A stretch of DNA of 32,000 bases from Geobacter sulfurreducens PCA (lineage in GTDB: Bacteria > Desulfobacterota > Desulfuromonadia > Geobacterales > Geobacteraceae). The first letter of the stretch is position 1. Every line of letters starts with the position of its first letter. The position numbers were made by a program, and so were the translations under genes. Location: positions 30,001-62,000 of the forward strand of contig NC_002939.5 of the NCBI RefSeq assembly GCF_000007985.2. Reading direction: 5' to 3'. Under the pieces are notes generated by a model, which saw only the letters and a program-made list of their open reading frames with translations, was not told the DNA's origin and searched no databases. Positions 18,680-32,000 of the stretch are shown piece by piece.

Positions 18680-18765
18680 GGAGGGATGGCCGAGTGGTTT
18701 AAGGCGGCGGTCTTGAAAACCGTTGAACGAAAGTTCCGTGGGTTCGAATCCTACTCCCTCCGCCA
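18680..18765 (+). tRNA. tRNA-Ser (anticodon UGA)
   Basis: Hand fold: acceptor GGAGGGA/TCCCTCC, anticodon stem GCGGT/ACCGT with loop CTTGAAA (anticodon TGA), a long variable arm, a GGTTCGAATCC T-loop and an encoded CCA. It starts 6 nt after the serS stop. Confidence 0.9.
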
Positions 18766-18784
18766 TAATTAATAAACAACGATC

Positions 18785-18878
18785 GGAGAGATGGCCGAGT
18801 AGGTCGAAGGCGCTCGCCTGCTAAGCGAGTATACGGGCAAAACCTGTATCGAGGGTTCGAATCCCTCTCTCTCCGCCA
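18785..18878 (+). tRNA. tRNA-Ser (anticodon GCU)
   Basis: Hand fold: acceptor GGAGAGA/TCTCTCC, anticodon stem CTCGC/GCGAG with loop CTGCTAA (anticodon GCT), a long variable arm, a GGTTCGAATCC T-loop and an encoded CCA. Confidence 0.9.
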
Positions 18879-18931
18879 GATATCTAACAGCCCGTGTCAT
18901 TGCGGTAAGGTTCTGGAGACGAGGAGGACAC

Positions 18932-19420
18932 GTGAAGGTGTTGTTCAGGCTGGTGGTCGTTGCCCTTACCGTCATGGTAGCTGTTGCCGGGTGCTCGAAA
19001 AAGGAAGAGCAGAAAGCCGGCGGCGATGCCGGAGCACAGCACGGCCAGGCGGCAAAGAAGGAATCAGTAGTTGTTGTTCCGGATAACGTTAAGGGAAAGT
19101 GGAAGTCCGTAAAGATAGCAGTTACCGATAAGGCTGCCAACAAGGAGTCGGTTTACACCATCAACGTCGGAGCTGAGCTGGCAATTCCGGAGAGCAATCT
19201 CACGATAGCGGTAGACAATTTCCTGCCTCACTTCACGATGGACGGGACGACTCTTACCTCCCAGTCCAATGAGCCGAAGAATCCTGCCGCACAGATCCGG
19301 ATTCTGGAGGGAGGGAAAGAAGTCTTCAAAGGATGGTTGTTCTCTCTGTACCCGACAACCCATGCCTTCAACCATCCCAAGTACGGTTTTACGTTGGTGG
19401 ATTTTATACCCGCCAATTAA
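18932..19420 (+). CDS. Small lipoprotein of unknown function (possibly DUF2155-like)
   Basis: GTG start with gaggagga upstream. The lipobox is VAVAGC. The C-terminal stretch FKGWLFSLYPTTHAFNHPKYGFTLVDF resembles my recollection of the DUF2155 pattern, so the family call is tentative. Confidence 0.6.
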   Translation: MKVLFRLVVVALTVMVAVAGCSKKEEQKAGGDAGAQHGQAAKKESVVVVPDNVKGKWKSVKIAVTDKAANKESVYTINVGAELAIPESNLTIAVDNFLPHFTMDGTTLTSQSNEPKNPAAQIRILEGGKEVFKGWLFSLYPTTHAFNHPKYGFTLVDFIPAN

Positions 19421-19424
19421 CAAT

Positions 19425-19501
19425 GCGCTCGTAGCTCAGCTGGATAGAGCACCAGACTACGAATCTGGGGGTCAGGAGTTCGAATCTCTTCGAGCGCGCC
19501 A
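19425..19501 (+). tRNA. tRNA-Arg (anticodon ACG)
   Basis: Hand fold: acceptor GCGCTCG/CGAGCGC, D-arm TAGCTCAGCTGGATAGAGC, anticodon stem CCAGA/TCTGG with loop CTACGAA (anticodon ACG), a GGAGTTCGAATCTC T-arm and an encoded CCA. It starts 4 nt after the lipoprotein stop. Confidence 0.92.
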
Positions 19502-19508
19502 TTAAAAC

Positions 19509-19540
19509 AAGGGGTTACGGCTAAGGCCGTAGCCCCTTTT
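19509..19540 (+). terminator. Intrinsic terminator closing the serS-tRNA-lipoprotein-tRNA unit
   Basis: aaggggttacggc, loop taag, gccgtagcccctt, followed by tttt (19509-19540). Confidence 0.75.
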
Positions 19541-19920
19541 CACTTTCCGTGGCCTCTGCCGTGGCCTACTGCGAAAATCCTCCCCTAAACCTCCTCCATG
19601 GAATAATATATCAATCCTGCTTCTGCTGGCGGCGACGCGAGATAAAGTCTGCTAGAGCGCGGACGACGATCAAGGTCATGACCAATGATGCCGTAATCAG
19701 TTCGGAAAATCAAGTTCTTGCAACCACATTAGCTGTTTGATCAAGTGTTGCAGTAAACGGCATCGAGCATGCTGGGTAATGGTGAGGAGGAGTAAATAGA
19801 TGGGAAGGAAGGCGGTGCACAAAATACCTGCGTGAGCTTCATGGGCCTATTCATGACAAGTTCAAGGAAGATTGCAGAGCTTGATTTCTTCCGGCTGAAA
19901 AATATTGGAAAAACCCTTCT

Positions 19921-20363
19921 CCCGATGCCGACGTAACGGATGAATATATTCAATAGCTTGTTGATGCGGCAATGGAGTTTGGTATCCCTGTGGGAGGATC
20001 CTGACCCAAGGGGAGATTAGCCGAAGACGGCACAGTCCCTGATATCTACCCAATGATCGAATAGGAATCTCGAAGCTACAGTTCACGGACAGAGCAGAAC
20101 GTTATCGACTCGGACGGTACACTTATCCTCAATAGGGGGAAGCTTTTGGGCGGGACTTTGCACACGGTGGAATACGCCCAAAAATATGCTCGACCCTGCC
20201 TAGTAGTCCGTCTGGACGCTGAATGTGATTTTGCAACCGTAACGCGGTGGATCGCGGACGAGAAAATCCGGTCCTCAACATCGCTGGACCGCGGGAATCT
20301 AAATTTCCCGGTATTCAAGAGAAAGCACTGGCGTTTCTCCGCGAAGTCTTCGCAGAAAGTTAA
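19921..20363 (+). pseudogene. Disrupted SLOG-fold YpsA-like / 'putative molybdenum carrier' family gene
   Basis: One reading frame gives ..LVDAAMEFGIPVGGS*PKGRLAEDGTVPDIYPMIE*ESRSYSSRTEQNVIDSDGTLILNRGKLLGGTLHTVEYAQKYARPCLVVRLDAE..VTRWIADEKI. In-frame stops occur at 19954-56, 20002-04 and 20062-64. After a frameshift near 20265-20270 a second frame gives PVLNIAGPRESKFPGIQEKALAFLREVFAES*, with its stop at 20361-63. I recognise the DSDGTLIL, GGT..T and LN(V/I)AGPRES pattern from memory of this family. The 5' limit is uncertain. Confidence 0.5.
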
Positions 20364-20368
20364 TCACC

Positions 20369-21040
20369 ATGTGCGGCCGATTCACCCTCACGCTCCCGCC
20401 TGACCTGCTGGCCGAGATCATCGGCGAGATCGAGGCTGCCCGCGTCCAGCCACGGTACAATATCGCTCCGGCCCAGGAGGTGGCAGTGGTCCGCCAGGAT
20501 GCCGGCGGCCGGCGCCATCTGGACTACCTCCGCTGGGGCCTGATTCCCCCGTGGGCCAAGGATGCCTCCGTGGGCAACCACATGATCAACGCCCGTTCCG
20601 AGACAGTGGCGGAGAAGCCTGCCTTCCGCCACGCTTTCCGCTCCCGGCGCTGTCTCGTGCTCGCCTCGGGCTTCTACGAATGGAAGGCCGAAGGGAACCG
20701 CAAACAGCCCCTCTATATCCACATGAAGGACGGCGGCCCCATGGTCTTTGCCGGGCTCTGGGAAAGCTGGAAATCCCCTGAGGGGGCAATCGTCGAATCC
20801 TGCACCATCCTCACCACGTACAGCAACAGCCTCATCCGCCCTCTCCACGACCGGATGCCCGTGATCCTCGGCCGCAGCGACTGGGACATCTGGCTGTCCC
20901 GCGAGGCGACCAGTGAGGAGCTTACCCCGCTCTTCCAGCCGTACCCCTCGGACCTTCTCGCCATGTACCCCGTGGGAACCGGCGTGAACAGCCCGCGCAA
21001 CGACTCGCCGGACCTTCTCGAACCCCTGAACGAGCCGTAA
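20369..21040 (+). CDS. SOS-response-associated peptidase (SRAP; YedK/HMCES family abasic-site sensor)
   Basis: The N-terminus MCGRF provides the catalytic Cys2. YNIAPAQ, LRWGLIPPWAKD, INARSETVAEKPAFR and RRCLVLASGFYEW are present. 223 aa. Confidence 0.9.
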   Translation: MCGRFTLTLPPDLLAEIIGEIEAARVQPRYNIAPAQEVAVVRQDAGGRRHLDYLRWGLIPPWAKDASVGNHMINARSETVAEKPAFRHAFRSRRCLVLASGFYEWKAEGNRKQPLYIHMKDGGPMVFAGLWESWKSPEGAIVESCTILTTYSNSLIRPLHDRMPVILGRSDWDIWLSREATSEELTPLFQPYPSDLLAMYPVGTGVNSPRNDSPDLLEPLNEP

Positions 21041-21072
21041 CCCCCGCCCTGGCGGACGTAGATCGAGCGCCC

Positions 21073-21101
21073 TTGACAGGTCGCCTGTACGGTGATAGGT
21101 T
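21073..21101 (+). promoter_or_regulatory. Sigma70-like promoter of lexA
   Basis: TTGACA at 21073-21078, a 17-nt spacer, then TAGGTT at 21096-21101. Confidence 0.45.
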
Positions 21102-21115
21102 GTCACATGTATACC
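21098..21115 (+). promoter_or_regulatory. LexA operator (Geobacter-type SOS box GGTT-N2-C-N4-G-N3-ACC)
   Basis: ggttgtcacatgtatacc fits GGTTNNCNNNNGNNNACC exactly. It overlaps the putative -10 and lies 27 nt upstream of the lexA ATG. The motif is recalled from published work on Geobacter sulfurreducens LexA. Confidence 0.75.
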
Positions 21116-21141
21116 ATGACTGATGACAACCCGGAGGAGCC

Positions 21142-21747
21142 ATGCAGGAACTTGCCCCCCGCCAGCAACAGGTCCTCGCCTTCATCACCGGCTTCATCGC
21201 CGAAAACGGCTACCCGCCGACCCTGCGGGAAATCGCCGCCCACCTCAAGATAAGCGGCACCCTCGGGGTCTCCAAGCACCTGGAGGCCCTGGAGCGCAAG
21301 GGGTACCTGCGCCGGGAGGCCAACAGCTCGCGGGGGATCGCCCTTGTCGGTCGGACAGACACAGCGCTCTCCCTCCCCGTGGCGGGAGTGGTCCGGGCCG
21401 GGCTCCCCCAGCCGGCCGTGGAGGACATCGAGGAGTATTTCGCCATCGACCGGAGCATGGTGCGGGGTGGCACCTTCTTTCTGCGGGTCAAGGGTGACTC
21501 CATGATCAACGCCGCCATTGTGGAAGGAGATCTGGCCCTGGTCCGCCCCCAGGCCACGGCGGAGAACCGGGACATCGTGGTCGCCATGGTGGACGGCGAG
21601 GCCACCCTCAAGCGCTTCTACCGGCAGCGGGACCAGATCCGCCTCCAGCCCGAGAACCCCAACATGGACCCCATCATCATCCGGCCGGGGGAGGGGGACG
21701 TGGCGATCATCGGCAAGGTGGTCGGCATCTACCGACCCCTGGAGTAG
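21142..21747 (+). CDS. lexA: LexA repressor (S24 self-cleaving)
   Basis: The N-terminal wHTH is LTPRQQQVL-like (APRQQQVLAFITGFIAENGYPPTLREIA). An Ala-Gly cleavage site (VAGVV), the Ser nucleophile (KGDSM) and the Lys (ATLKRF) are present. Confidence 0.93.
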   Translation: MQELAPRQQQVLAFITGFIAENGYPPTLREIAAHLKISGTLGVSKHLEALERKGYLRREANSSRGIALVGRTDTALSLPVAGVVRAGLPQPAVEDIEEYFAIDRSMVRGGTFFLRVKGDSMINAAIVEGDLALVRPQATAENRDIVVAMVDGEATLKRFYRQRDQIRLQPENPNMDPIIIRPGEGDVAIIGKVVGIYRPLE

Positions 21748-21753
21748 AGCGCC

Positions 21754-22002
21754 ATGGAACGGGTAGCACAACAGGTCAAGGTGGCGGCCGTCTTTGCCCC
21801 GGGGAGCCGGATCAGACCCGTCTGGTTCGAGTGGAACCGGGAGAAGCACGCCATCACCCAGACCACCTACTTCTGGCGGGACCGGGTGGGGGAGGTGACC
21901 GTCCTGCGCTTTGCCGTCACCGACGGCAGCTCCCTCTTTGAGCTCTCCTACAACACCCGCGACCAGAACTGGACCCTGGATGGGGTGGAGGCGGCACCGT
22001 GA
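21754..22002 (+). CDS. Hypothetical 82-aa protein inside the lexA-dinB operon
   Basis: The ATG lies 6 nt after the lexA stop, and the stop overlaps the dinB GTG (GTGA, 21999-22002). Composition and codon usage look like the flanking genes. I recognise no motif. Confidence 0.6.
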   Translation: MERVAQQVKVAAVFAPGSRIRPVWFEWNREKHAITQTTYFWRDRVGEVTVLRFAVTDGSSLFELSYNTRDQNWTLDGVEAAP

Positions 22003-23240
22003 GCGGGGGAGAGCCCAGGCAGCGAACCATCCTCCACATCGACATGAACGCCTTTTTCGCCAGTGTCGAACAGCAGGCGAACCCGAGCCTCCAGGGAAAA
22101 CCCATCGCCGTTGTCGGCTCCGGCCGCACCGTGGTCACCACCGCCTCCTATGAGGCCCGGGCCTTCGGCGTCAAGACCGGCATGAACAAGTGGGAAGCGC
22201 TCCAGGCCTGCCCCCACCTCATCCTGGTCGTGGGTGACAACCGCAAATACACCCACACCTCCACCCAGATCAACCGGATCTTCCGGGACTTCACCCCGGA
22301 GGTGGAAACCTTCTCCATCGACGAAGCCTTCCTCGACGTCACCGGCTCCCTGGCGCTCTTCGGCTCCGCCGAAACCATCGCCTGCCGGATCAAGGCCCTG
22401 ATCCGCCATCGTTTCGGCCTGACCTGCTCCATCGGCATCGCCCCCAACAAGCTCCTCGCCAAACTCGCCTCTGACATGAAAAAGCCCGACGGCCTCACCA
22501 TCATCCGCCCGGAAGAGGTGACCCGCCTCATGGAGATCATCCCCATCCAGGACCTCTGCGGCATCGGCGTCAAGACCAGAAAACAGCTCAACAGCCTCGG
22601 CATCCAGACCTGTGGCGAGCTGGGGCGCTTCCCGGTGGAGATCTTGCGGCGCACATTCGGGGTGATCGGCGACCGGCTCCACCTCATGGGCAAGGGGATC
22701 GACGATTCCCCCGTGGTCCCCGTCGAGGAGGCCGAAGAGGTAAAGAGCGTCGGCCACTCCATGACCCTGGACAGGGACCTCACCGCTCGACGGGACATCC
22801 TCAAATACCTCCTCCAGCTCTCCGAGATGGTGGGCCGCCGGGCACGGCGCTACGGCGTTGCCGGCAAGACGGTCCATCTCACCATCCGCTATGCCGACTT
22901 CACCACCGTGGGCAAGCAGCAGACCCGGAACCAGGCCACTAACAGCACAGAGGAAATTTACGCCGAAGCGGTGAAGATCCTCGACACCTTTGAGCTGCTG
23001 CAGCCGGTGCGTCTTCTGGGGGTGCGGATCACGAACCTGTGCTACCAGCGGGAACAGTTGCCGCTCTTCGAGAAGGAACGGAGGAAGGCCCTTGCCACCG
23101 GGGCCATGGACGCGGTGAACAACAGGTATGGCGACTTCTCTGTCACCTTCGGGAGCCTCCTTGATGAAGAGGAGAAGGGGAGCTTCGTCATCTCCCCGGC
23201 CTGGCGGCCGGAGGGGATCAGGAATGTGGAGGTGAAGTGA
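21999..23240 (+). CDS. dinB: DNA polymerase IV (Y-family)
   Basis: Y-family motifs are present: ILHIDMNAFFASVEQ, SIDEAFLDVTG and IGIAPNKLLAKLASDMKKPDG, plus a little-finger region. GTG start. Confidence 0.93.
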   Translation: MSGGEPRQRTILHIDMNAFFASVEQQANPSLQGKPIAVVGSGRTVVTTASYEARAFGVKTGMNKWEALQACPHLILVVGDNRKYTHTSTQINRIFRDFTPEVETFSIDEAFLDVTGSLALFGSAETIACRIKALIRHRFGLTCSIGIAPNKLLAKLASDMKKPDGLTIIRPEEVTRLMEIIPIQDLCGIGVKTRKQLNSLGIQTCGELGRFPVEILRRTFGVIGDRLHLMGKGIDDSPVVPVEEAEEVKSVGHSMTLDRDLTARRDILKYLLQLSEMVGRRARRYGVAGKTVHLTIRYADFTTVGKQQTRNQATNSTEEIYAEAVKILDTFELLQPVRLLGVRITNLCYQREQLPLFEKERRKALATGAMDAVNNRYGDFSVTFGSLLDEEEKGSFVISPAWRPEGIRNVEVK

Positions 23241-23923: not shown

Positions 23924-26900
23924 TCACCTGATCACTAACTTCTCTACCACTACAGATCCATTGAAAATTGTGAGGCTTCCATTTATTGTTGTGACGCCAG
24001 CATTTCCGGAGTACTGGTCATCGTAACCGCCTTTTAGCATCACCGAAATGTTCCTGTTGAGAACACATGCTTCTGTCAGGTTTATTCCCCATATCTGTAT
24101 AGTGCTGTTCGATGGAGCAGCATTATAAGCCGCCTGAATAGTCGAATAATACAAGGGCGACGGACTATCTAGACGCACAACGTGCGTATCATCTTTCGTG
24201 AAAGTAGCCGTCACTGTGGTATTCGACTGGAGCGAAATAATACAGTTTCCGGTACCCGAGCATGCCCCTGACCAGCCAGTGAACAACGAATAGTCCGGTT
24301 CTGCCGTAAGGGTGATGGTTGAGCCGCTTTCGTAGAACCCTCCGCAGGTGCTGTTACAGGAAATACCGACCGAAGGACCGGTGATTGCACCCTTACCAGT
24401 ACCGTTAATAGTGATGTCAAGGCGATAGCCCGCACGGACTGTTATGTTAGCGCCAGTTGCATTGCCGGTATTTCCGGCAGCATCGGTGGCGCGAGCTTTG
24501 ATGCTGACAGCCCCTGGCTCGGGCAGTTGCCAGTCGAAGCTCCAGTTTGTCGTCCCGCTTGCCACTCTCCAGCTCTGGCCACCGTCGGTTGACACCTCAA
24601 CCCTCTGGATACCGCTCCCATTGCCATCACCAGCTGTCCCCTTGATGATATAACTCGGCCCGCAAACTGTCTCTCCAGAGACAGGGAGGCTTATGGCTAT
24701 TGATGGTGCCTGCTGATCAAGGCCCACTACTCGGGAGTCTATTGTTTGATTACCAGCCTCATCCACCGCAGCAGTATTTATCTGGTTAAGTCCCGGCAAG
24801 AGAGTAAGTGACTGCGAAAAGGACCCATCATAAGCAAGTGGCACACTGACCCCGTTAATCGTTAACCGACTTACTCGTGTTCCGTCCGTGGTCTTGCCTG
24901 TTAATTCCACCGTCGACAAGCTTGTCCATGACCCTGCAACCGGAGCTGTCACCGACAAGGATGGGCCAGTTGTATCGACGACAAACTGTTCCGTTTGTAC
25001 AGAGCTGGCATTGCCAGCAAGATCAATGGCGACAAGTTTCAGTATCGCGTTACCACTCACAAGTATCGGTTTTGAATAGACTGACGATGCGGTCGTCGGG
25101 TTCGTGCCGTTGAGCGTATAGTAGATGGTTGCAGGCTCGCTGGTCGTGAGCGTAACAGTTTGGCCAGAGTTGTATATCCCGCTCCGCAAAGAGAGGTTGA
25201 CTGTCGGGCTTACTGTGTCAAGGGTTATTGTCGCGTTCAACGGTGCAGTTGTAGCATTGCCTAACTTGTCGCGATACCAGGCATGAACCGTCTTCGGGCC
25301 GTCCCCTGCCGGTATTACCCATTCCTTTGTCCCGATATAAGGTTCCCACCTCGAACAAACATTGTCATTGCTGACGCACATTTCAGAGGCGCCGCTGGCA
25401 TCTTTTGCAGTGAGTTTCAGTGAAACTGTAGTACTTCTTGTAAACGTTCGCCCATCATCTACGACTACAGAACCAATCGGCGACTGACTGTCACTCATAC
25501 CAGCGGCGACACCCGTGAGTTGTGCCGATAGAAGTGGGGTATTGCTGTCGGAAGTTGGTATCTCCACCTGTGCACTTTTGGCGCCGGAATAGGAGGGAAC
25601 AAACTGAACATCTACCGTGCAGGTCGACGCCGCAGCCATACTCTTTCCAGAGCACCCGTTCGCGACTACAGTAAACTCATAGGGGTTAATCCCGGTTGTT
25701 GTCAGACTGCCAAGGTCTATGCTTTCTGATCCGGCATTGGTAACAGTCAACCGCATCGTTTTAACACTGCCAGTATAAGTTCCGAAATCCAGCGCGATTG
25801 GCTTTAAGTGTGCCCCGCTGTTAACTGATAACGATACTCCCGCTTCCCCGTTTCCGAGCCTGTCCCTTGTGGAGTACGTTTCGCTGCTCCTCTGTGCTGA
25901 ACCTGCACTGAAATTCCCGTGTCGCAGTGTGTATCCTTCACTGATCGCGATTACGTTGTAATGAGCAGGATCGGTGTCGCTGGCATCGGGGAGCCCGTCG
26001 CCGTCACTGTCTGCACTGATAAAAGGATCACTGCCATTTGCAGTTGTGTGGAAGACATATACTTCCAGGTAGTCACTCAAACCGTCACTGTCCGAGTCTG
26101 CCAGAATGGGCTTCGTCCCCTTCAGATATTCCTGGAGGTTGACCATCCCGTCGCCATCGGGATCAGCCTGGGCATCGGCCCGGTCGTGGGGATTCAACCC
26201 GTTCGCTGCCTCCCAGACATCGGGCATGCCGTCGTTGTCGTCGTCATCGTCAACGATATCGGCGATGCCATCGCCATCGCTGTCAGCAAGCCCCAGGTAA
26301 CCTGTCTGCCGGCCAAGCGCATCGTTCAGAGCATAGTTTTCGCTCTCGCGTTGCCCGCCCCCCTGGTTGAACCCGACCTGCTGCAGGGAGTCGCGCAGGA
26401 TGTAGCTGTCGCTCAGCTGTGCCGCACCAGTTTGCGAGAAGCTGGCCCGCTTCAGTACGTAATTATCACTGCTGCTGTCCATCTGGGGGTTGTCGGCCTT
26501 GGTCGGGTCGGTTCCCTGCTGGTACTCGCGCTGGTTGTTCCAGCTATCGCCATCCGGGTCAGCCTGGGAATCGATCGTGCCTACCAGGGCATAACGGTTG
26601 GCCCAGGCATCGGGGAAGCCGTCGTTGTTGCTGTCGTTGTCATAGGCGTCTGGGATGCCGTCGCTGTCGACATCGGCCGACAGATACTCGATCTCGGCGA
26701 TTTTGTAGGTCGACTCAATGCCGTTCCTGCGGACTTTGAAGTAAACTGTCTTCTTCCCCGGATCGCCGGTGAGTGTGTAGGAAATGGCGGTTCCGTATGG
26801 CTGCCAGCTGGCTCCGGCGAATTCTGGTGACTCGCTGGCCAAGAACTCGCTCGGGTTGCCGATGGTGACGTTGCTGAGAGTCACCTGCCGGGTGGTGGTG

Positions 26901-29900
26901 TACGGCTGGCCGTTGTTGAGGGAGAACAGGGCCACGATCGGTTTCTGGTCCGTCTTGCCGGTCACCGCATGGGGGCCTGCGCCTGCTTCCCCATAGGTGT
27001 ACTGGGCCATGCTGGTGGTCCCGTTCTGCACGCTGGTTTCGGTCAGCATGTTGCCGATGGGGTTGTAGAGGTAATCCTTCCGGTAGCCGCCGGCGCCGGC
27101 ATCCTCGGCCATCAGCAGCCGGTTGAGCGGATCGTAGGTGAAGTTCTCGGTGCGCGGCGATGCAGGCTGCGTGGCGTTGACGATCTTCTTCACATTGCCC
27201 ACATAGTCGTATTCGTAACTGAAGTTCTGAATGTTCGTCGTGAGAATCCGCTTCAGGTGGAAGTTTTCCGGGTAGTAATTGAACTGGGTCGCGAGGCCGT
27301 TAATGTAGCCACGCCGCGTTTCGCTCCCTGCCTGGTTGTAATCGATGGCGCTGAGAATTCCGGAGATTGCCGACAGTTTCCCCATGCCGTTGTAGGAGAA
27401 GGTCGTCACCTGGCCGTCCGGGTAGGTCTGGCTCGTCAGGCGGTCCATAGGGTCGTACGCCCACGAGGTCGTCCAGGTCATGCCGTCCATTGTGCGGGTT
27501 TCGCCGGTCTTGCGCAGCCGCGCGTCGTAGGTGTAGGCGACCGTGCCCAGAGCGTCGGTCACCCGCGACAGGGCACCAACTTTCCCTTCGTCATAGACGT
27601 AGCTAATGTCCGGATCGTTCGGGTAATCGACCTTCGTCACCCGGTTCAGGGGGTCGAACGTGAACCTCGTGGCAATCCCCTTTGCATCGGTGGTGGCGAT
27701 GATATTGCCGACCCGGTCGTAACGGGATGTCCGTGTGCCGAGATCAGGATCCACCACTTTCGTCTTCCTTCCCAGGGAGTCGTAGCTGTGGGTGGTGGTG
27801 TTCCCCAGGTGATTGGTGGTCGTCAGCAGCTCCCCCAGCGGATTGTAGCCGTAGCGGGTGAGATAGGTCTCGCTGCCGTTCACCTCCGCCACCTGCGCCA
27901 GTTTGCCGTCCGCATCGAACCACTTCTGCTTCAGGTGGCTGTTCTCGTTGGTTTCCGTGACGGACCAGTGGTTGTAACTGCGCAGGCTAAAGGTCCCGTC
28001 GGGATTAGTTACCTTTAGCGGCCGCCCAATGGGGTCATACTCGGTCACCGTCTTCGGTGTCGCCAGAGGAGCAGAATAACCGACGCTTGCGGTGGCGAGG
28101 TATGGCAGGGAGCGCCCCGACTCGCGCCCCATAGCGTCGTGGAAGGTATCGACCACAATCTGGGATGCCGGGTTCTGGTATTCGGCCCTGGTCTGGATGA
28201 CCCGGCCGAGGCCGTCCACCGACTGGATAGTATCCAGCGTATTGGCCGTGCCCGCCTGTTCGCGGGCCTTCACGGTCACGTTCTCCGGGGCGCTGCCGTC
28301 CAGGTTGTAATTGATCTCCGTCGTCGGGAAGGCGAGAGTGTCACCCGGCTTGACCACCTTCATCAGCCGCTTGAAGTTGTCATAGACGTACACCGTCTCG
28401 GCGCCGTTCGGGTCTCTCTCCAGCACCGGCTTGCCGATGGCTGGGTCGAACTGCCGCTCCGTCACCTGCCCCTTGGCATTGGTCACCCGCACCGGGAAGG
28501 CATGGTAGTCCGCATCGTACTCCACCTTCGTCGCCCGCCCCTCGGGGTCGATGGTCTCAATGCGGTTGCCATAGCTGTCGTAGCGGTAGGTGGTTACCGG
28601 GTTCTCGCCGCTATCCAGGAAATGCTCCTCCCGTGTGAGGTTCCCCTGCACCGGCACCGCATTCAGATCGCCTCCGTCGTACTGGAACCAGCTCTCCCGC
28701 AGGTGCGCCCCGCCGGGCGTTGCGGCGCTGTAGAGGCGTTTTACCCTATTCAGCAGCCAGAGGTTCTCGTTCTGGGCGTATTCCCGGAAGGTGAACAGCT
28801 CGTCGCCACTGACAGCAGCATCGCCATAATCTGCCTCCAGGGTCACGTTGCCGAACTGGTCGAACTGGTAGTCTTTCACCACCTGCTTCGGGCTTGCCGC
28901 CACACCGTCATAGGTGAAGGTCTCCACCCGGTCGAGGGTCACATTATGGACACCGTCGGCTGTGGTCGCCGACCAACTGTTCACGGTTTTGATGTACGGT
29001 TTGCCGGCGGCATCCGTCGTCAGCGTCTGGGCTTCGGTCCCTTTCAGGGCATCGTCCTGGTTGAAGGTATGGATGACTTGCGAGATTATGTTCGTGCCAT
29101 CCCGATGGGTTTCCGTCACCATGCCGAAGCCGCGAAATTCGTTGGAAGGAACGTCGAACAGCCCGTTCGCACAGGCATAACCGGTGGTCACAATGGTCCT
29201 CTGGGAGTTGCCGGCCGGCAAGCCATTGTCCCTAGTCACCGATGACACCACCCAGTAGTTGGAGGGGAGGCTGCTGTTCGGGCAGGTGGAGGAAGGGGCA
29301 TAGGCAATAGTGGTAACACCCCCCAGGTCACTGGTGATCGTCTCCAGCAACCTGGTCTGGGCATCGGCCTGTGTGTAGGTGAACCGGGTCGGCGGCAGTG
29401 AGGTGACGCCATCAGAGCCGTATTTGGTGATGCTGGAAAGGAGCGATAGCGGCGTTTCCGGGGTTATGGGGGAATATGCCAGCCTGATACTCTTCACCAG
29501 GCTGCCGCTGACCGAGACGTCGATCCTGCTCAACCGTTTAGCGATGGTGACTGCGGAGCCTTCATCCACCAGCGAAACCGGGTCGGGCCGGTCTTCCCAA
29601 GTAAATTCAATGACCCGCTGCCGGTCGTTGTTGTATTCGATCCTGCCGGGATAGACGACTCCCTGGTCTTCCACGTAGGAATAATAGATGGCGTTGCCGT
29701 TCGTGTCGGTGATCCTGTCCAGGCTCCAGCGCCACCCCTGGGGGGTCTCCGGAATGCCGGGGTAGAGAATGTTGTCCGCATCCTGCGTGATGCCGAAGGA
29801 ATATCTGGTGCCGTCCTTGGCAGTCACCTCCCAAGCTTCGCCGGAACTGTTTGCAGCGCAGGGTTTCTTCTCGATCTTCAGGTACGATTCGATTCTGGTG

Positions 29901-30277
29901 CGGTAGCGGCCGTTCCCGGCATCAACCAAGTCATGCCTGGCGCCGTTCAGGATGAGGGAGTATGTGTCGTTGCTGTTTTTCTGGATGTGGTTGGAAGGAA
30001 TTTCCCAGCCAGTGCCTAACTGGTTGTTGGTGTTGCCAACAAGGAAGCTGTTGTAGGAAAGGGACAACCGCGGGGCAAAACCGTGTACTCCGGATGGATG
30101 TTCTACTTTATAGTCGTAATAATAAGTGCAAGTAAATAAATTTGATTGGTAAAAGTAACTGAAAATATTGCCTGCCCACACAGATGAGTCAAAAATTACA
30201 GAGACGCAAAATATGGCCATTAAATACACCAGCCCGATTATAGTGGCCCGAATATATTTATACGCCTCACAGAACAT
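23924..30277 (-). CDS. Giant secreted SpvB-N / TcdB-mid / YD(RHS)-repeat shell protein with Ca-binding and Ig-like C-terminal modules; no RHS core or toxin tip
   Basis: 2117-aa ORF with GGAG 8 nt upstream of the ATG. The Sec-type signal is MFCEAYKYIRATIIGLVYLMAIFCVSVIFDSSVWA|G. An SpvB-like motif is present (GFAPRLSLSYNS...NQLGTGWEI), as is a TcdB-midN-like stretch (YWVVSSVTRDNGL...NEFRGFGMV). Many YD repeats occur (YRYDSYGNRIETIDPEGR, YGYNPLGELLTT, HSYDSLGRKTKVVDP, SRYDRVGNIIATTDAKG, FTFDPLNRVTKV, YTYDARLRKTGE, WAYDPMDRLTSQ, FTYDPLNRLL). See the sub-features for the tail. Confidence 0.9.
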   Translation of the reverse strand: MFCEAYKYIRATIIGLVYLMAIFCVSVIFDSSVWAGNIFSYFYQSNLFTCTYYYDYKVEHPSGVHGFAPRLSLSYNSFLVGNTNNQLGTGWEIPSNHIQKNSNDTYSLILNGARHDLVDAGNGRYRTRIESYLKIEKKPCAANSSGEAWEVTAKDGTRYSFGITQDADNILYPGIPETPQGWRWSLDRITDTNGNAIYYSYVEDQGVVYPGRIEYNNDRQRVIEFTWEDRPDPVSLVDEGSAVTIAKRLSRIDVSVSGSLVKSIRLAYSPITPETPLSLLSSITKYGSDGVTSLPPTRFTYTQADAQTRLLETITSDLGGVTTIAYAPSSTCPNSSLPSNYWVVSSVTRDNGLPAGNSQRTIVTTGYACANGLFDVPSNEFRGFGMVTETHRDGTNIISQVIHTFNQDDALKGTEAQTLTTDAAGKPYIKTVNSWSATTADGVHNVTLDRVETFTYDGVAASPKQVVKDYQFDQFGNVTLEADYGDAAVSGDELFTFREYAQNENLWLLNRVKRLYSAATPGGAHLRESWFQYDGGDLNAVPVQGNLTREEHFLDSGENPVTTYRYDSYGNRIETIDPEGRATKVEYDADYHAFPVRVTNAKGQVTERQFDPAIGKPVLERDPNGAETVYVYDNFKRLMKVVKPGDTLAFPTTEINYNLDGSAPENVTVKAREQAGTANTLDTIQSVDGLGRVIQTRAEYQNPASQIVVDTFHDAMGRESGRSLPYLATASVGYSAPLATPKTVTEYDPIGRPLKVTNPDGTFSLRSYNHWSVTETNENSHLKQKWFDADGKLAQVAEVNGSETYLTRYGYNPLGELLTTTNHLGNTTTHSYDSLGRKTKVVDPDLGTRTSRYDRVGNIIATTDAKGIATRFTFDPLNRVTKVDYPNDPDISYVYDEGKVGALSRVTDALGTVAYTYDARLRKTGETRTMDGMTWTTSWAYDPMDRLTSQTYPDGQVTTFSYNGMGKLSAISGILSAIDYNQAGSETRRGYINGLATQFNYYPENFHLKRILTTNIQNFSYEYDYVGNVKKIVNATQPASPRTENFTYDPLNRLLMAEDAGAGGYRKDYLYNPIGNMLTETSVQNGTTSMAQYTYGEAGAGPHAVTGKTDQKPIVALFSLNNGQPYTTTRQVTLSNVTIGNPSEFLASESPEFAGASWQPYGTAISYTLTGDPGKKTVYFKVRRNGIESTYKIAEIEYLSADVDSDGIPDAYDNDSNNDGFPDAWANRYALVGTIDSQADPDGDSWNNQREYQQGTDPTKADNPQMDSSSDNYVLKRASFSQTGAAQLSDSYILRDSLQQVGFNQGGGQRESENYALNDALGRQTGYLGLADSDGDGIADIVDDDDDNDGMPDVWEAANGLNPHDRADAQADPDGDGMVNLQEYLKGTKPILADSDSDGLSDYLEVYVFHTTANGSDPFISADSDGDGLPDASDTDPAHYNVIAISEGYTLRHGNFSAGSAQRSSETYSTRDRLGNGEAGVSLSVNSGAHLKPIALDFGTYTGSVKTMRLTVTNAGSESIDLGSLTTTGINPYEFTVVANGCSGKSMAAASTCTVDVQFVPSYSGAKSAQVEIPTSDSNTPLLSAQLTGVAAGMSDSQSPIGSVVVDDGRTFTRSTTVSLKLTAKDASGASEMCVSNDNVCSRWEPYIGTKEWVIPAGDGPKTVHAWYRDKLGNATTAPLNATITLDTVSPTVNLSLRSGIYNSGQTVTLTTSEPATIYYTLNGTNPTTASSVYSKPILVSGNAILKLVAIDLAGNASSVQTEQFVVDTTGPSLSVTAPVAGSWTSLSTVELTGKTTDGTRVSRLTINGVSVPLAYDGSFSQSLTLLPGLNQINTAAVDEAGNQTIDSRVVGLDQQAPSIAISLPVSGETVCGPSYIIKGTAGDGNGSGIQRVEVSTDGGQSWRVASGTTNWSFDWQLPEPGAVSIKARATDAAGNTGNATGANITVRAGYRLDITINGTGKGAITGPSVGISCNSTCGGFYESGSTITLTAEPDYSLFTGWSGACSGTGNCIISLQSNTTVTATFTKDDTHVVRLDSPSPLYYSTIQAAYNAAPSNSTIQIWGINLTEACVLNRNISVMLKGGYDDQYSGNAGVTTINGSLTIFNGSVVVEKLVIR
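23927..25810 (-). other. Domain region: beta-sandwich/adhesin-like modules (aa ~1490-2117)
   Basis: An ASH/choice-of-anchor-D-like segment is LDFGTYTGSVKTMRLTVTNAGSESIDL...CTVDVQFVP. An Ig-like module carries the W.PY...K.W....GDG.KTV pattern, which also occurs at aa ~1120-1185. A CHB_HEX_C-like segment is GIYNSGQTVTLTTSEPATIYYTLNGTNPT. Two further Ig-like modules follow. An InlB-B-repeat-like segment is YRLDITINGTGKGAITG...TLTAEPDYSLFTGWSGAC. The cap is beta-helix-like. All assignments are by eye. Confidence 0.5.
25958..26680 (-). repeat. Domain region: thrombospondin-type-3-like Asp-rich Ca-binding repeats (aa ~1200-1440)
   Basis: DVDSDGIPDAYDNDSNNDGFPDAW, DPDGDSWNNQREYQQGTDP, DSDGDGIADIVDDDDDNDGMPDVWE, DPDGDGMVNLQEYLKGTKP, DSDSDGLSDYLE and DSDGDGLPDASDTDP. 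Confidence 0.7.
26960..28777 (-). repeat. Domain region: YD/RHS repeat shell (aa ~500-1106), ending ...YTYGEAGAGPHAVTG
   Basis: The YD-repeat consensus (Y.YD..G....) recurs throughout. I saw no YYxHxDHLGS, no PFGE...GLYYxRARYYDP and no DPxGL motif after it. Confidence 0.7.
28778..30115 (-). other. Domain region: SpvB-like N-terminal domain plus TcdB-middle/N-like region (aa ~55-500)
   Basis: Motifs are listed under the parent CDS. Boundaries are estimated from residue counting and are not HMM-derived. Confidence 0.6.
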
Positions 30278-30301
30278 TAAACATTCTCCATTTAAATGAA
30301 T

Positions 30302-31170
30302 TTATCCGGCTTTATGTCCAAACAAGCCACATCTGATTTGGATATATATAAACCTTAGTTTTGATATTACCTCATAGGTAAGAGTTAATTTATCAGCAGC
30401 ATATTCAGTTAATGCTTGTGATGCGCTAGCGTAATCACCGTTTTTAATGAATTCAATAATTTTTAATCCAGTTACTGAATCACCTATACCAGGCAGATTC
30501 TCTACAGCTGACAATAAATCATCAGATTCTTCAACGCATTTATCTAGGCTGTTATCATATTCACCAATAAACACAGAAGTGTCTGGTAGATGATTAACAT
30601 CAATATTATTGTCACTTGGGACTTGATTGTTTGTTAAAGATTCAGTTTCATGTGCTGCATTGTTTGTGGCTTTCATTCGGTTGCTTTGTGTTTTGGTTCG
30701 AGAAATATTTTTTGCGACTTGATACTTCTTCCCCTCCTTAAACAGCTTCTTCGCCTTCTTCAGCGGTGTCTTGTCATGATCCGGATCAACCCCATGGGCG
30801 ATCATCCATTTTTCTCTCTTTGACAGCTTTGCCTTCTTTTTCTTCTTGTAGCCATCCAGGTCAACATAACTGAGCGGATTGTTCCCCGCGTACGCATACA
30901 GGTTCAGATCCTGCGGATCATCCAGATCGGGCTCCTCGACATCCGCCTGGGTGAAGTGCCGCAGTTCCGGGCTGACGTAGCGCGCCTCGAAGTTGTATAA
31001 CCCTGCCCCCTTGTCGTTTTCCTTGCCGGTGTAATAATTCTCTGTGCCGCCTTGCCTGACCTCGCCGAAGGGGAGATAGCTGGTGCTGCTGACCACCTGC
31101 CCGGAACCGTTGGTCACCGCGCTCACACCACCCAAATGGTCAGGATGATAGAAATAGGTGTTAGCGGCAA
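30302..31170 (-). pseudogene. 3' fragment of an RHS gene: RHS-associated core end plus uncharacterised AT-rich C-terminal tip (ORF 30302..31210 borrows its first ~13 codons from the IS end)
   Basis: The translation contains TYFYHPDHLGG, YLPFGE, YTGKENDKGAGLYNFEARYVSPELRHFTQAD and NLYAYAGNNPLSYVDLDGY, which together form the RHS core-domain consensus. It is followed by about 180 aa (KKKKKAKLSKREKW...GLFGHKAG) with no motif I recognise. The N-terminal MGQFSISEVGHFY is encoded by the putative IS21 terminus. Confidence 0.7.

Positions 31171-32000
<830 letters not shown>

Follow-up and report, generated by a model that had tools for sequence, protein, structure and literature searches.

The 32,000-nucleotide stretch of the Geobacter sulfurreducens PCA genome analyzed here (contig NC_002939.5, positions 30,001 to 62,000 of the forward strand; hereafter the window) carries on its minus strand a giant open reading frame (ORF) whose product, we propose, is the shell subunit of a split, Sec-exported polymorphic toxin of the Rhs/Tc type. 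We give this reading a probability of about 0.72. The original prediction took the giant protein for a secreted SpvB/YD shell that lacks an RHS-associated core and a toxin tip, continues into a long adhesive tail, and follows the logic of eukaryotic teneurins rather than that of bacterial Rhs toxins. The architecture itself is largely borne out below. The core and toxin are nevertheless not missing from the system: both are encoded next door, by a conserved partner gene immediately upstream whose product is collinear with the segment that follows the GPHAVTG motif in single-chain relatives. This neighboring gene was overlooked because a core had been sought inside the giant ORF only.

The Missing Core Is Predicted in the Upstream Gene

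The next ORF upstream of the giant gene, on the same minus strand (30302..31210, 302 residues), lies 24 nucleotides from its start. Its product has the sequence ...TYFYHPDHLGG...YLPFGE...GLYNFEARY...DPQDLNLYAYAGNNPLSYVDLDG-Y, followed by a Lys-rich stretch and approximately 180 residues of low-GC sequence, and it matches the RHS core model TIGR03696 at 57.1 bits (cutoff 32.5). Judged by these motifs, an RHS core and tip directly precede the supposedly "core-less" shell gene. The residues required for autoproteolysis (R184, D197, and D224) and the motif PxxxxDPxG are invariant in 39 members of the small-protein family. Furthermore, alignment of the small protein to the solved bacterial teneurin-like protein 9PT5 covers residues 1939-2151 of the latter, that is, the last ~200 residues up to the cleavage site, and the R-to-D spacing of 13 in the family is the same as in that structure. 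Cleavage of 9PT5 has been reported after L2144 (PMC13018210).

Many of these proteins, which we refer to as cartridges, also share the Lys-rich segment KKKKKAKLSKREKWMIAHGxDPDxDKTxLKKAKK between the predicted cleavage site and the variable tip (window 30700-30850; alignment columns ~365-460). This segment may represent a common pre-toxin or release module.

A Three-Gene Cassette Is Conserved among Relatives

Intact loci were surveyed in five relatives of the giant protein with gene neighborhoods (47-84% identity) and in a metagenome scan that was seeded with the small-protein family and classified by tblastn. The same three co-oriented genes, spaced by 0-45 nucleotides, are present in all five relatives, and their order, a fiber-like protein gene followed by the small protein gene and then the giant gene, is conserved in at least 14 related loci. 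A small gene followed by an SpvB-shell gene is found at L001-L006, L011, L040-L043, L045, L046, L049, and L054, a list that includes Geobacter sp. OR-1. Every small-type ORF with enough downstream DNA precedes an SpvB-shell gene, and the fiber gene lies upstream wherever the contig extends that far. The genes flanking the cassette differ between loci, which argues that the cassette is autonomous.

The first gene of the cassette encodes 268-334 residues with a hydrophobic leader, and the C-terminal half of its product corresponds to a phage tail-collar-fiber tip (phrog_1800 "tail collar fiber protein," E 1e-28; Pfam Collar is borderline). In some loci this gene is paired; at L004 (6961-8659), two tandem tail-collar-fiber genes of 278 and 268 residues precede the cartridge gene, and one of them weakly matches T4 Gp10_C. 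The second gene encodes 384-431 residues comprising a leader that ends in AxA, ~100 residues of YD hairpins, a TIGR03696 core (55-70 bits in the partners of the five relatives), the Lys-rich linker, and a hypervariable C-terminus.

The tips are diverse. In the L002 protein the C-terminus is a CHAP peptidoglycan hydrolase, and among the best 120 small-protein clusters, all of which are 235-607 residues long, CHAP tips occur in 10 and M23 (Peptidase_M23) tips in 6. The L003-type tip is predicted to form long helices, including a Gly/Ala-rich hydrophobic stretch. CHAP, M23, and L003-type helical tips would act on the cell envelope. A phospholipase A2 (PLA2)-like CCxxHDxCY motif in the L004 tip was read by eye and has no Pfam match, and it is not counted as evidence.

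The small-protein family comprises 525 representative clusters at E<=1e-30 and, by source names, is found in Geobacter, Geomonas, Nitrospirota, and Desulfobacterota; approximately 135 of the best 150 representatives (at 50% identity) are no longer than 520 residues. Public annotations of the proteins discussed here read [quoted passage not shown] "choice-of-anchor D domain-containing," or "RHS repeat-associated core domain-containing." A more distant variant of the arrangement is seen at L052 (6569-17103) and also at L053, where a 1555-residue protein with delta-60/DUF11/CARDB modules, YD repeats, a TIGR03696 core, and a tip is followed by a 1961-residue SpvB shell that has no core and ends in a DUF11 repeat. 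Given L052, the split principle appears to extend beyond one clade.

Evidence for Gene Fission

The closest non-tailed relatives of the giant protein are single-chain SpvB-type Rhs toxins of 1900-2200 residues, and BLASTP against 15 of these fused relatives was used as a test of collinearity. On P0022, residues 310-1110 of the giant protein correspond to residues 808-1600 and residues 32-227 of the small protein to residues 1606-1822. Likewise, the giant protein reaches residue 1605 on P0026, 1332 on P0029, and 1904 on P0046, and the small protein starts at 1609, 1336, and 1910, respectively. On the fused relatives the end of one protein and the beginning of the other fall 3-14 residues apart, just after a G-x-G-P-H-A-V-T motif that lies 105-130 residues ahead of the core motif. 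Identity to the fused relatives is 30-41% across ~800 residues of shell and 35-50% across the cartridge.

In the tail-bearing members, the same K-[TS]-D-x-K-P... immunoglobulin (Ig)-like module follows GPHAVTG in 18 of 18 cases, which indicates that the junction between shell and Ig-like module is old and shared. A controlled comparison with profile hidden Markov models found TIGR03696 in 17 of 18 fused relatives versus none of the 18 tail-bearing shells. Because the gene for the C-terminal module lies upstream of the shell gene and specifies a leader of its own, a frameshift or nonsense mutation is ruled out as a simple cause. The pairwise identities of the small-protein N-terminal part and of the shell are strongly correlated across 12 loci (Mantel r 0.92; reached by 0 of 5000 permutations), and the tips show no such co-divergence with the shell. 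These comparisons show the cassette to be a fission of a canonical Rhs protein: the last ~200 residues together with the tip make up a gene of their own upstream, and a tail has been added to the shell.

Fold of the Shell and Composition of the Tail

The original prediction relied on residues 500-1106 of the giant protein forming a YD shell, and structure prediction supports this part of it. An AlphaFold2 model of residues 36-1200, computed from a 52-sequence alignment, is nearly all beta and has a mean pLDDT of 91.7 and a pTM of 0.81. In Foldseek searches of the PDB its best matches are the TcdB2-TccC3 fusion cocoons 6SUP, 6H6G, and 4O9X (E 1e-50 to 1e-53; TMq 0.80-0.82), ahead of the cocoons of type VI secretion system (T6SS) Rhs effectors (TMq 0.43-0.59) and of teneurins and the bacterial teneurin-like protein 9IFO (TMq 0.23-0.46). 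Because this confident model best matches TcdB2-TccC3 and teneurins score lower, the predicted YD shell is Tc-like rather than teneurin-like. A phmmer alignment of the giant protein to solved Rhs chains had its repeats out of register and was not used for placing the fission point.

Domains of the giant protein were called by Pfam/TIGRFAM-type profile searches reported down to E<=1, and most of the originally proposed list holds, from the SpvB, TcdB-mid, and YD-repeat regions to the choice-of-anchor D, CHB_HEX_C, Ig-like, and InlB-B-like modules. The shell matches Pfam SpvB (E 2.4e-10, residues 124-206), TcdB_toxin_midN (E 1.8e-11, residues 307-398), RHS_repeat (E 1.6e-40, eight stretches reaching ~residue 1100), and YD_repeat_2x (95.8 bits), and its YD region also matches Pfam TEN_YD-shell. 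The repeats end at ...GAGPHAVTG (~residue 1106), as had been described, and no core or tip follows inside the ORF: TIGR03696 has no match in the giant protein at E<=1, and regular expressions for YxHxDHLGS, PFGE, and DPxGL find no core motif after the repeats. The Pfam profile search likewise gives no match in the giant protein to an FG-GAP/VCBS propeller, and none to an FN-plug or NHL domain at E<=1. Approximately 450 residues of propeller that are present in the fused relatives are absent between residues 305 and 310 of the giant protein; other tail-bearing members of the family retain all or part of it.

Beyond the shell, the thrombospondin-3-like repeats are weakly supported by Pfam (TSP3_bac, E 0.67), but six DxDxDG..D motifs at residues 1202-1431 and matches of MtsD/MtsC thrombospondin-3 models to 13 of 18 relatives argue for them. 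Short S-x-x-Y-x-L-(R/K/N) repeats of no assigned family (DNYVLKR, DSYILRD, ENYALND, EGYTLRH, ETYSTRD) follow each Asp-rich block, at 26294-26491 and 25823-25942 (residues 1263-1328 and 1446-1485). As for the proposed ASH/choice-of-anchor D module, the choice-of-anchor D assignment stands (46.9 bits; cutoff 45), whereas the overlapping ASH match is weak (E 0.014). The remaining modules are CHB_HEX_C_1/Fn3_assoc (residues 1698-1765; CHB_HEX_C_1 E 3.8e-21), Glucodextran_B (residues 1772-1854), a Big_7/OmpL47-type barrel (residues 1858-1947), and Flg_new_2, which is InlB B-repeat-like (E 3.3e-8, residues 1955-2029). The final 88 residues (2030-2117), where the original prediction placed a putative beta-helix-like cap, have no assigned module. 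Since profile matches place ~1000 residues of predicted folded modules after the last shell repeat, this tail cannot be cargo and the chain would have to exit the shell, in agreement with the original prediction.

Such a tail could also suggest that the giant protein is a cargo-less, teneurin-like adhesion shell that acts as a surface or extracellular adhesin only, the upstream core-toxin gene being functionally unrelated. The adhesin type of its modules (choice-of-anchor D, thrombospondin-3-like, Ig-like, and CHB_HEX_C) speaks for this, as does the finding that the giant ORF is intact, and the same in four assemblies, despite a partner gene cut by an insertion sequence (IS) of the IS21 family. 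We nonetheless regard it as unlikely. In every related locus with enough sequence the partner gene lies immediately upstream, it supplies exactly the segment that the shell is missing, and it co-diverges with the shell; moreover, Foldseek prefers TcB-TcC over teneurins, and the FN-plug and NHL domains were not detected.

Proposed Mechanism and Its Weak Points

The comparative basis for a split cassette is strong, combining gene order, collinearity, a complementary core, co-divergence, a predicted cocoon fold, and polymorphic tips. We propose that an intact cassette would produce a secreted fiber-tip protein of ~270 residues, a secreted cartridge of ~400 residues, and a shell protein of ~2100 residues whose YD wall would end at GPHAVTG and whose chain would continue outside as a Ca-binding, Ig-like, and carbohydrate-binding-like stalk. 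Both shell and cartridge would be exported by Sec. The first hairpin of the cartridge would pair with the last strand of the giant protein at the rim and extend the beta-sheet, the cartridge core would close the shell with the tip inside, and the core would cut after DP(L)DG-Y/H. The stalk and the tail-fiber-like protein could then anchor the particle on a target surface, the site at which the envelope-acting tip would be released.

Several points weigh against this proposal. We infer the physical assembly of shell and cartridge in trans from sequence comparison, and linkage alone could explain their co-divergence. The signal peptides of the giant protein, its relatives, and the small proteins were judged by eye, and the exported chains would also need a route across the outer membrane. 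When the small protein was modeled alone, the pLDDT was 63.5, with a helical leader, moderately confident hairpins, and a core region below 50; a poor model of this kind fits a protein that would fold only against its partner but is no proof of it. All significant Foldseek matches of this model in the PDB are YD-shell proteins, at low TM, which lends weak support. An immunity gene is visible neither between nor after the genes in any locus, for which encapsulation might, speculatively, account. Finally, the partner is truncated in the window yet the 2117-residue ORF is intact, so the shell may have a function of its own.

A second alternative denies the small genes a role as shell subunits and regards them as stand-alone secreted toxins or as silent "orphan" Rhs-CT cassettes that serve as a reserve for recombination. 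Such orphan modules are well documented in Enterobacteria; the tips of the small proteins are hypervariable and low in GC, and the tip region has been swapped by recombination between the window and the related locus L003, all of which would suit such cassettes. The small genes, however, have their own start codons and hydrophobic leaders and lie upstream, not downstream, of the large gene, and the giant gene has no core-homologous stretch in which recombination could take place. In addition, a 100-residue YD fragment with a plug is unlikely to fold alone, and the N-terminal part is strongly conserved and co-diverges with the shell. We therefore consider this explanation quite unlikely and continue to favor a shell closed in trans.

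More broadly, such cassettes might constitute a widespread capsule that is independent of secretion systems: a Sec-exported YD shell with its own adhesin stalk, sealed in trans by an interchangeable cartridge of plug and toxin and working alongside a phage-tail-fiber-like receptor binder. Such a capsule would deliver envelope-degrading enzymes (CHAP, M23, and others) to neighboring cells and need neither a T6SS nor TcA nor an immunity protein, and the G. sulfurreducens locus would be a shell that lost its toxin and kept its adhesin. We advance this generalization tentatively, the odds being somewhat against it. If it is true, the G. sulfurreducens locus exemplifies a step of the sort by which teneurins have been proposed to originate.

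Rhs/Tc cocoons are a major route of toxin packaging and delivery in bacteria and are being engineered as protein-delivery containers. In the characterized cocoons, plug and toxin are part of the shell chain or the shell is split in its middle (TcB/TcC) and needs a TcA injector. A natural plug of ~200 residues that forms, with its cargo, a separate, swappable, Sec-exported cartridge would, if confirmed, demonstrate that closure of a YD cocoon in trans is possible outside the cytoplasm, and it would provide a minimal means of loading foreign cargo. The large family has probably been overlooked in competition within sediment and subsurface communities. The IS-damaged copy in G. sulfurreducens provides a case for asking whether a shell-adhesin keeps its function after the loss of its toxin, which also bears on how teneurins originated.

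Relationship to Known Systems

The closest structural counterpart is the TcB-TcC cocoon (TcdB2-TccC3; 4O9X, 6SUP, and 6H6G), which shares the SpvB-like N-terminal domain, the TcdB-mid region, the YD cocoon, and, as proposed here, a construction from two polypeptides with the core protease and the toxin on one of them. The differences are considerable. The split lies ~100 residues before the core here and in the middle of the shell there, such that TcC of ABC toxins contributes ~700 residues of shell plus toxin and the partner described here merely ~200 residues of shell plus core. The cartridge gene precedes the shell gene, both chains have predicted signal peptides, and the shell chain runs into an adhesin-like tail of ~1000 residues. 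The FG-GAP/VCBS propeller of TcB, which gates the cocoon and docks it on TcA, has no counterpart in the giant protein, and no TcA partner was found in the window or the annotated relatives.

These differences bear on a third alternative, in which the giant and small proteins make up a BC-type cocoon for docking to a TcA-like translocator whose gene lies elsewhere, as in a classical ABC toxin complex. TcdB2-TccC3 is indeed the best structural match, and the SpvB and TcdB_midN domains are present. We nevertheless judge this alternative very unlikely: no TcA/VRP1-type gene is found in the window or in the six gene-annotated relatives, the beta-propeller that mediates TcA docking is absent from the giant protein, and the split point is not at the TcB/TcC boundary. 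Tc toxins are assembled in the cytoplasm, whereas both chains of the present system seem to be exported by Sec.

The closest relatives by sequence are the single-chain SpvB/TcdB-type Rhs toxins, which share the signal peptide, SpvB domain, YD shell, GPHA motif, core, and polymorphic tip. They form the "TcdB/TcaC" class of Zhang et al. (2012, PMC3482391). Unlike the cassette, they combine shell, core, and toxin in one chain of ~1900-2200 residues with an FG-GAP/VCBS propeller. Nor does the giant protein show the features of a canonical single-chain Rhs toxin, namely a core in cis and a C-terminal toxin with an adjacent immunity gene.

Teneurins and teneurin-like proteins (PMC13018210, PMC5851990; 6FB3, 9IFO/9PT5) resemble the giant protein in their YD shell, their extracellular or Sec-dependent location, and the presence of adhesion modules joined to that shell; the C-terminus of metazoan teneurins leaves the shell, and in teneurin-like proteins the segment to which the cartridge aligns includes the cleavage motif. 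Teneurin-like proteins are defined by an FN-plug, NHL, and YD shell, with N-terminal adhesins and the toxin in cis (PMC13018210). By contrast, no FN-plug, NHL, or TIP domain is detected in the giant protein, its adhesion modules are C-terminal rather than N-terminal, and core and toxin are not in cis. T6SS Rhs effectors (RhsA 7Q97, Tse15 8UXT, Rhs1/Tre23 7PQ5, and 8QJA) likewise enclose a polymorphic toxin in a YD cocoon with an aspartyl-protease core, but they are single chains with a PAAR/VgrG-linked N-terminus, an N-terminal plug, T6SS delivery, and an adjacent immunity gene, none of which is seen here.

What we find is a core-less SpvB shell preceded by a gene that combines a leader, ~100 residues of YD repeats, a TIGR03696 core, and a variable tip, the two being collinear with fused relatives; in the window the small gene is 5'-truncated. 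With no core in cis, no propeller in the giant protein, no TcA, and a different split point and gene order, the cassette belongs strictly to neither the TcB-TcC nor the single-chain SpvB class. A two-chain version of Rhs with a separate plug-toxin gene is previously undescribed: in a search of the literature, including PMC13018210, PMC3482391, PMC7861908, and PMC11435725, no core-less SpvB shell whose core-toxin is encoded in trans was described, although such absence is not proof.

The Giant Gene Is Genuine

The original prediction had described one uninterrupted ORF with a good Shine-Dalgarno sequence and a Sec-type leader. The ORF is intact, GGAG sits 9-12 nucleotides 5' of its ATG, and the N-terminus is hydrophobic; hydrophobic leaders are also found at the N-termini of its relatives. 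The possibility, raised at the time, that an assembly error or frameshift joins two genes can be put aside. The identical ORF is present in the complete G. sulfurreducens genome CP078092.1 and in three other assemblies, and the architecture, with its junction between GAGPHAVTGK and the Ig-like module, is common to 18 database clusters (P0001-P0018) from several lineages down to 40% identity; because the architecture recurs in this way and the gene is identical in four independent assemblies, it is no artefact. The last alternative, that an assembly or frameshift artefact or a decaying pseudogene fuses a truncated Rhs gene to an unrelated adhesin gene, could appeal to the IS elements that flank the locus but is refuted by this family-wide conservation and further opposed by the high AlphaFold2 confidence.

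A scan of contigs with very specific 8-mers of the giant protein recovered one true relative, in Geobacter sp. OR-1; 28 other loci match through the Asp-rich repeats only, which leaves little basis for statistics. The scan suggests that the species-representative G. sulfurreducens genome has no identical copy of the giant gene. Promoter and terminator scans around the two gene ends gave counts not above those of shuffled sequence. The features of the locus are listed in table 1.

Table 1. Features of the giant gene, its partner, and the adjoining insertion element (window coordinates; aa, amino acids of the giant protein; a slash marks the predicted cleavage site)
Feature	Coordinates	Strand	Basis or remarks
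Giant ORF, proposed shell-plus-adhesin subunit	23924..30277	-	Uninterrupted; 2117 aa / 2117 codons
Predicted Sec signal peptide (aa 1-35, ...VWA/GN)	30173..30277	-	Hydrophobic N-terminal stretch ending ...SSVWA/GN
SpvB-like N-terminal shell domain (aa 42-305)	29363..30154	-	Pfam SpvB; aligns to aa 77-351 of fused relative P0022
TcdB_midN-like region and YD-repeat shell (aa 310-1110)	26948..29350	-	Profile matches, AlphaFold2, Foldseek
GPHAVTG motif, proposed fission point (aa 1100-1106)	26960..26980	-	In fused relatives, ~100 aa of YD repeats and the core come next
First Ig-like module (aa 1107-1200)	26678..26959	-	Immediately after the shell in 18/18 family members
Two Asp-rich thrombospondin-3-like Ca-binding blocks with S-x-x-Y-x-L spacers (aa 1201-1445)	25943..26677	-	Six DxDxDG..D motifs
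Choice-of-anchor D / ASH-like module (aa 1486-1580)	25538..25822	-	Profile match; in 17/18 relatives
Second Ig-like module, CHB_HEX_C_1/Fn3_assoc, Glucodextran_B, Big_7/OmpL47-type barrel, Flg_new_2, and unassigned 88-aa C-terminus (aa 1598-2117)	23927..25486	-	Profile matches
Remnant of the partner "plug-toxin" gene	30302..31158	-	ORF start at 31210 falls inside the IS end; homology from ~31158-31160 with TYFYHPDHLGG
RHS repeat-associated core (predicted aspartyl autoprotease), end ...NNPLSYVDLDG/Y	30851..31078	-	TIGR03696; R/D/D invariant in the family
Lys-rich linker and variable C-terminal tip, low GC	30305..30850	-	Sequence comparison
IS21-family element	31159..32000 and beyond the window	+	Terminal repeats, then istA from 31245

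An IS21 Insertion and the Local Island

The element that abuts the partner gene fits the IS21 family, which is characterized by istA (rve) and istB (AAA) genes and multi-repeat terminal inverted repeats beginning TG...CA. In the window its istA matches NF033546 at 245.7 bits, and the genome copy (L008) includes an IstB_IS21 gene and 32-nucleotide terminal inverted repeats at 84%. DNA homology to the intact relative L003 starts at window position 31160, which corresponds to codon ~124 of the small gene, and the annotated ATG lies inside the IS end; the insertion has thus removed the signal peptide and the YD hairpins of the partner. In the complete genome, the sequence past the IS contains another transposase and a type I-U CRISPR-Cas locus; the fiber gene and the lost 5' end of the small gene are both absent from it. 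The toxin system is thus probably disabled in this strain, leaving an intact orphan shell gene.

A further exchange is apparent at 30087-30711, where GC is ~0.41. This stretch spans the toxin tip and the first ~60 codons of the giant gene, including the signal peptide, and it has no DNA homology to L003 although its flanks are 87-91% identical. Because the nonhomologous stretch covers both the tip and the start of the giant gene, the cassette replacement crosses the gene boundary.

On the other side of the giant gene, 18680-23240 contains a cluster of tRNA-Ser(tga), tRNA-Ser(gct), and tRNA-Arg(acg), followed by SRAP, a LexA-like gene, an 82-residue ORF, and a DinB/IMS polymerase gene. Beyond the latter lie the giant gene and IS elements and, in L008, WYL/HIRAN/Cas3 and type I-U cas genes. 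The region looks like an accessory island beside a tRNA cluster. The 221-residue and 106-residue frames at 31052-31883 are not genuine; they merely overlap the IS21 istA gene in another frame or on the strand opposite to it. In sample SRR23092754 (L007:7212-8795), a DDE_Tnp_1 transposase gene directly follows the same giant gene, the last ~18 codons of which it alters. In combination with the IS21 element and an IS3-like element upstream, this insertion marks the locus as an IS hotspot.

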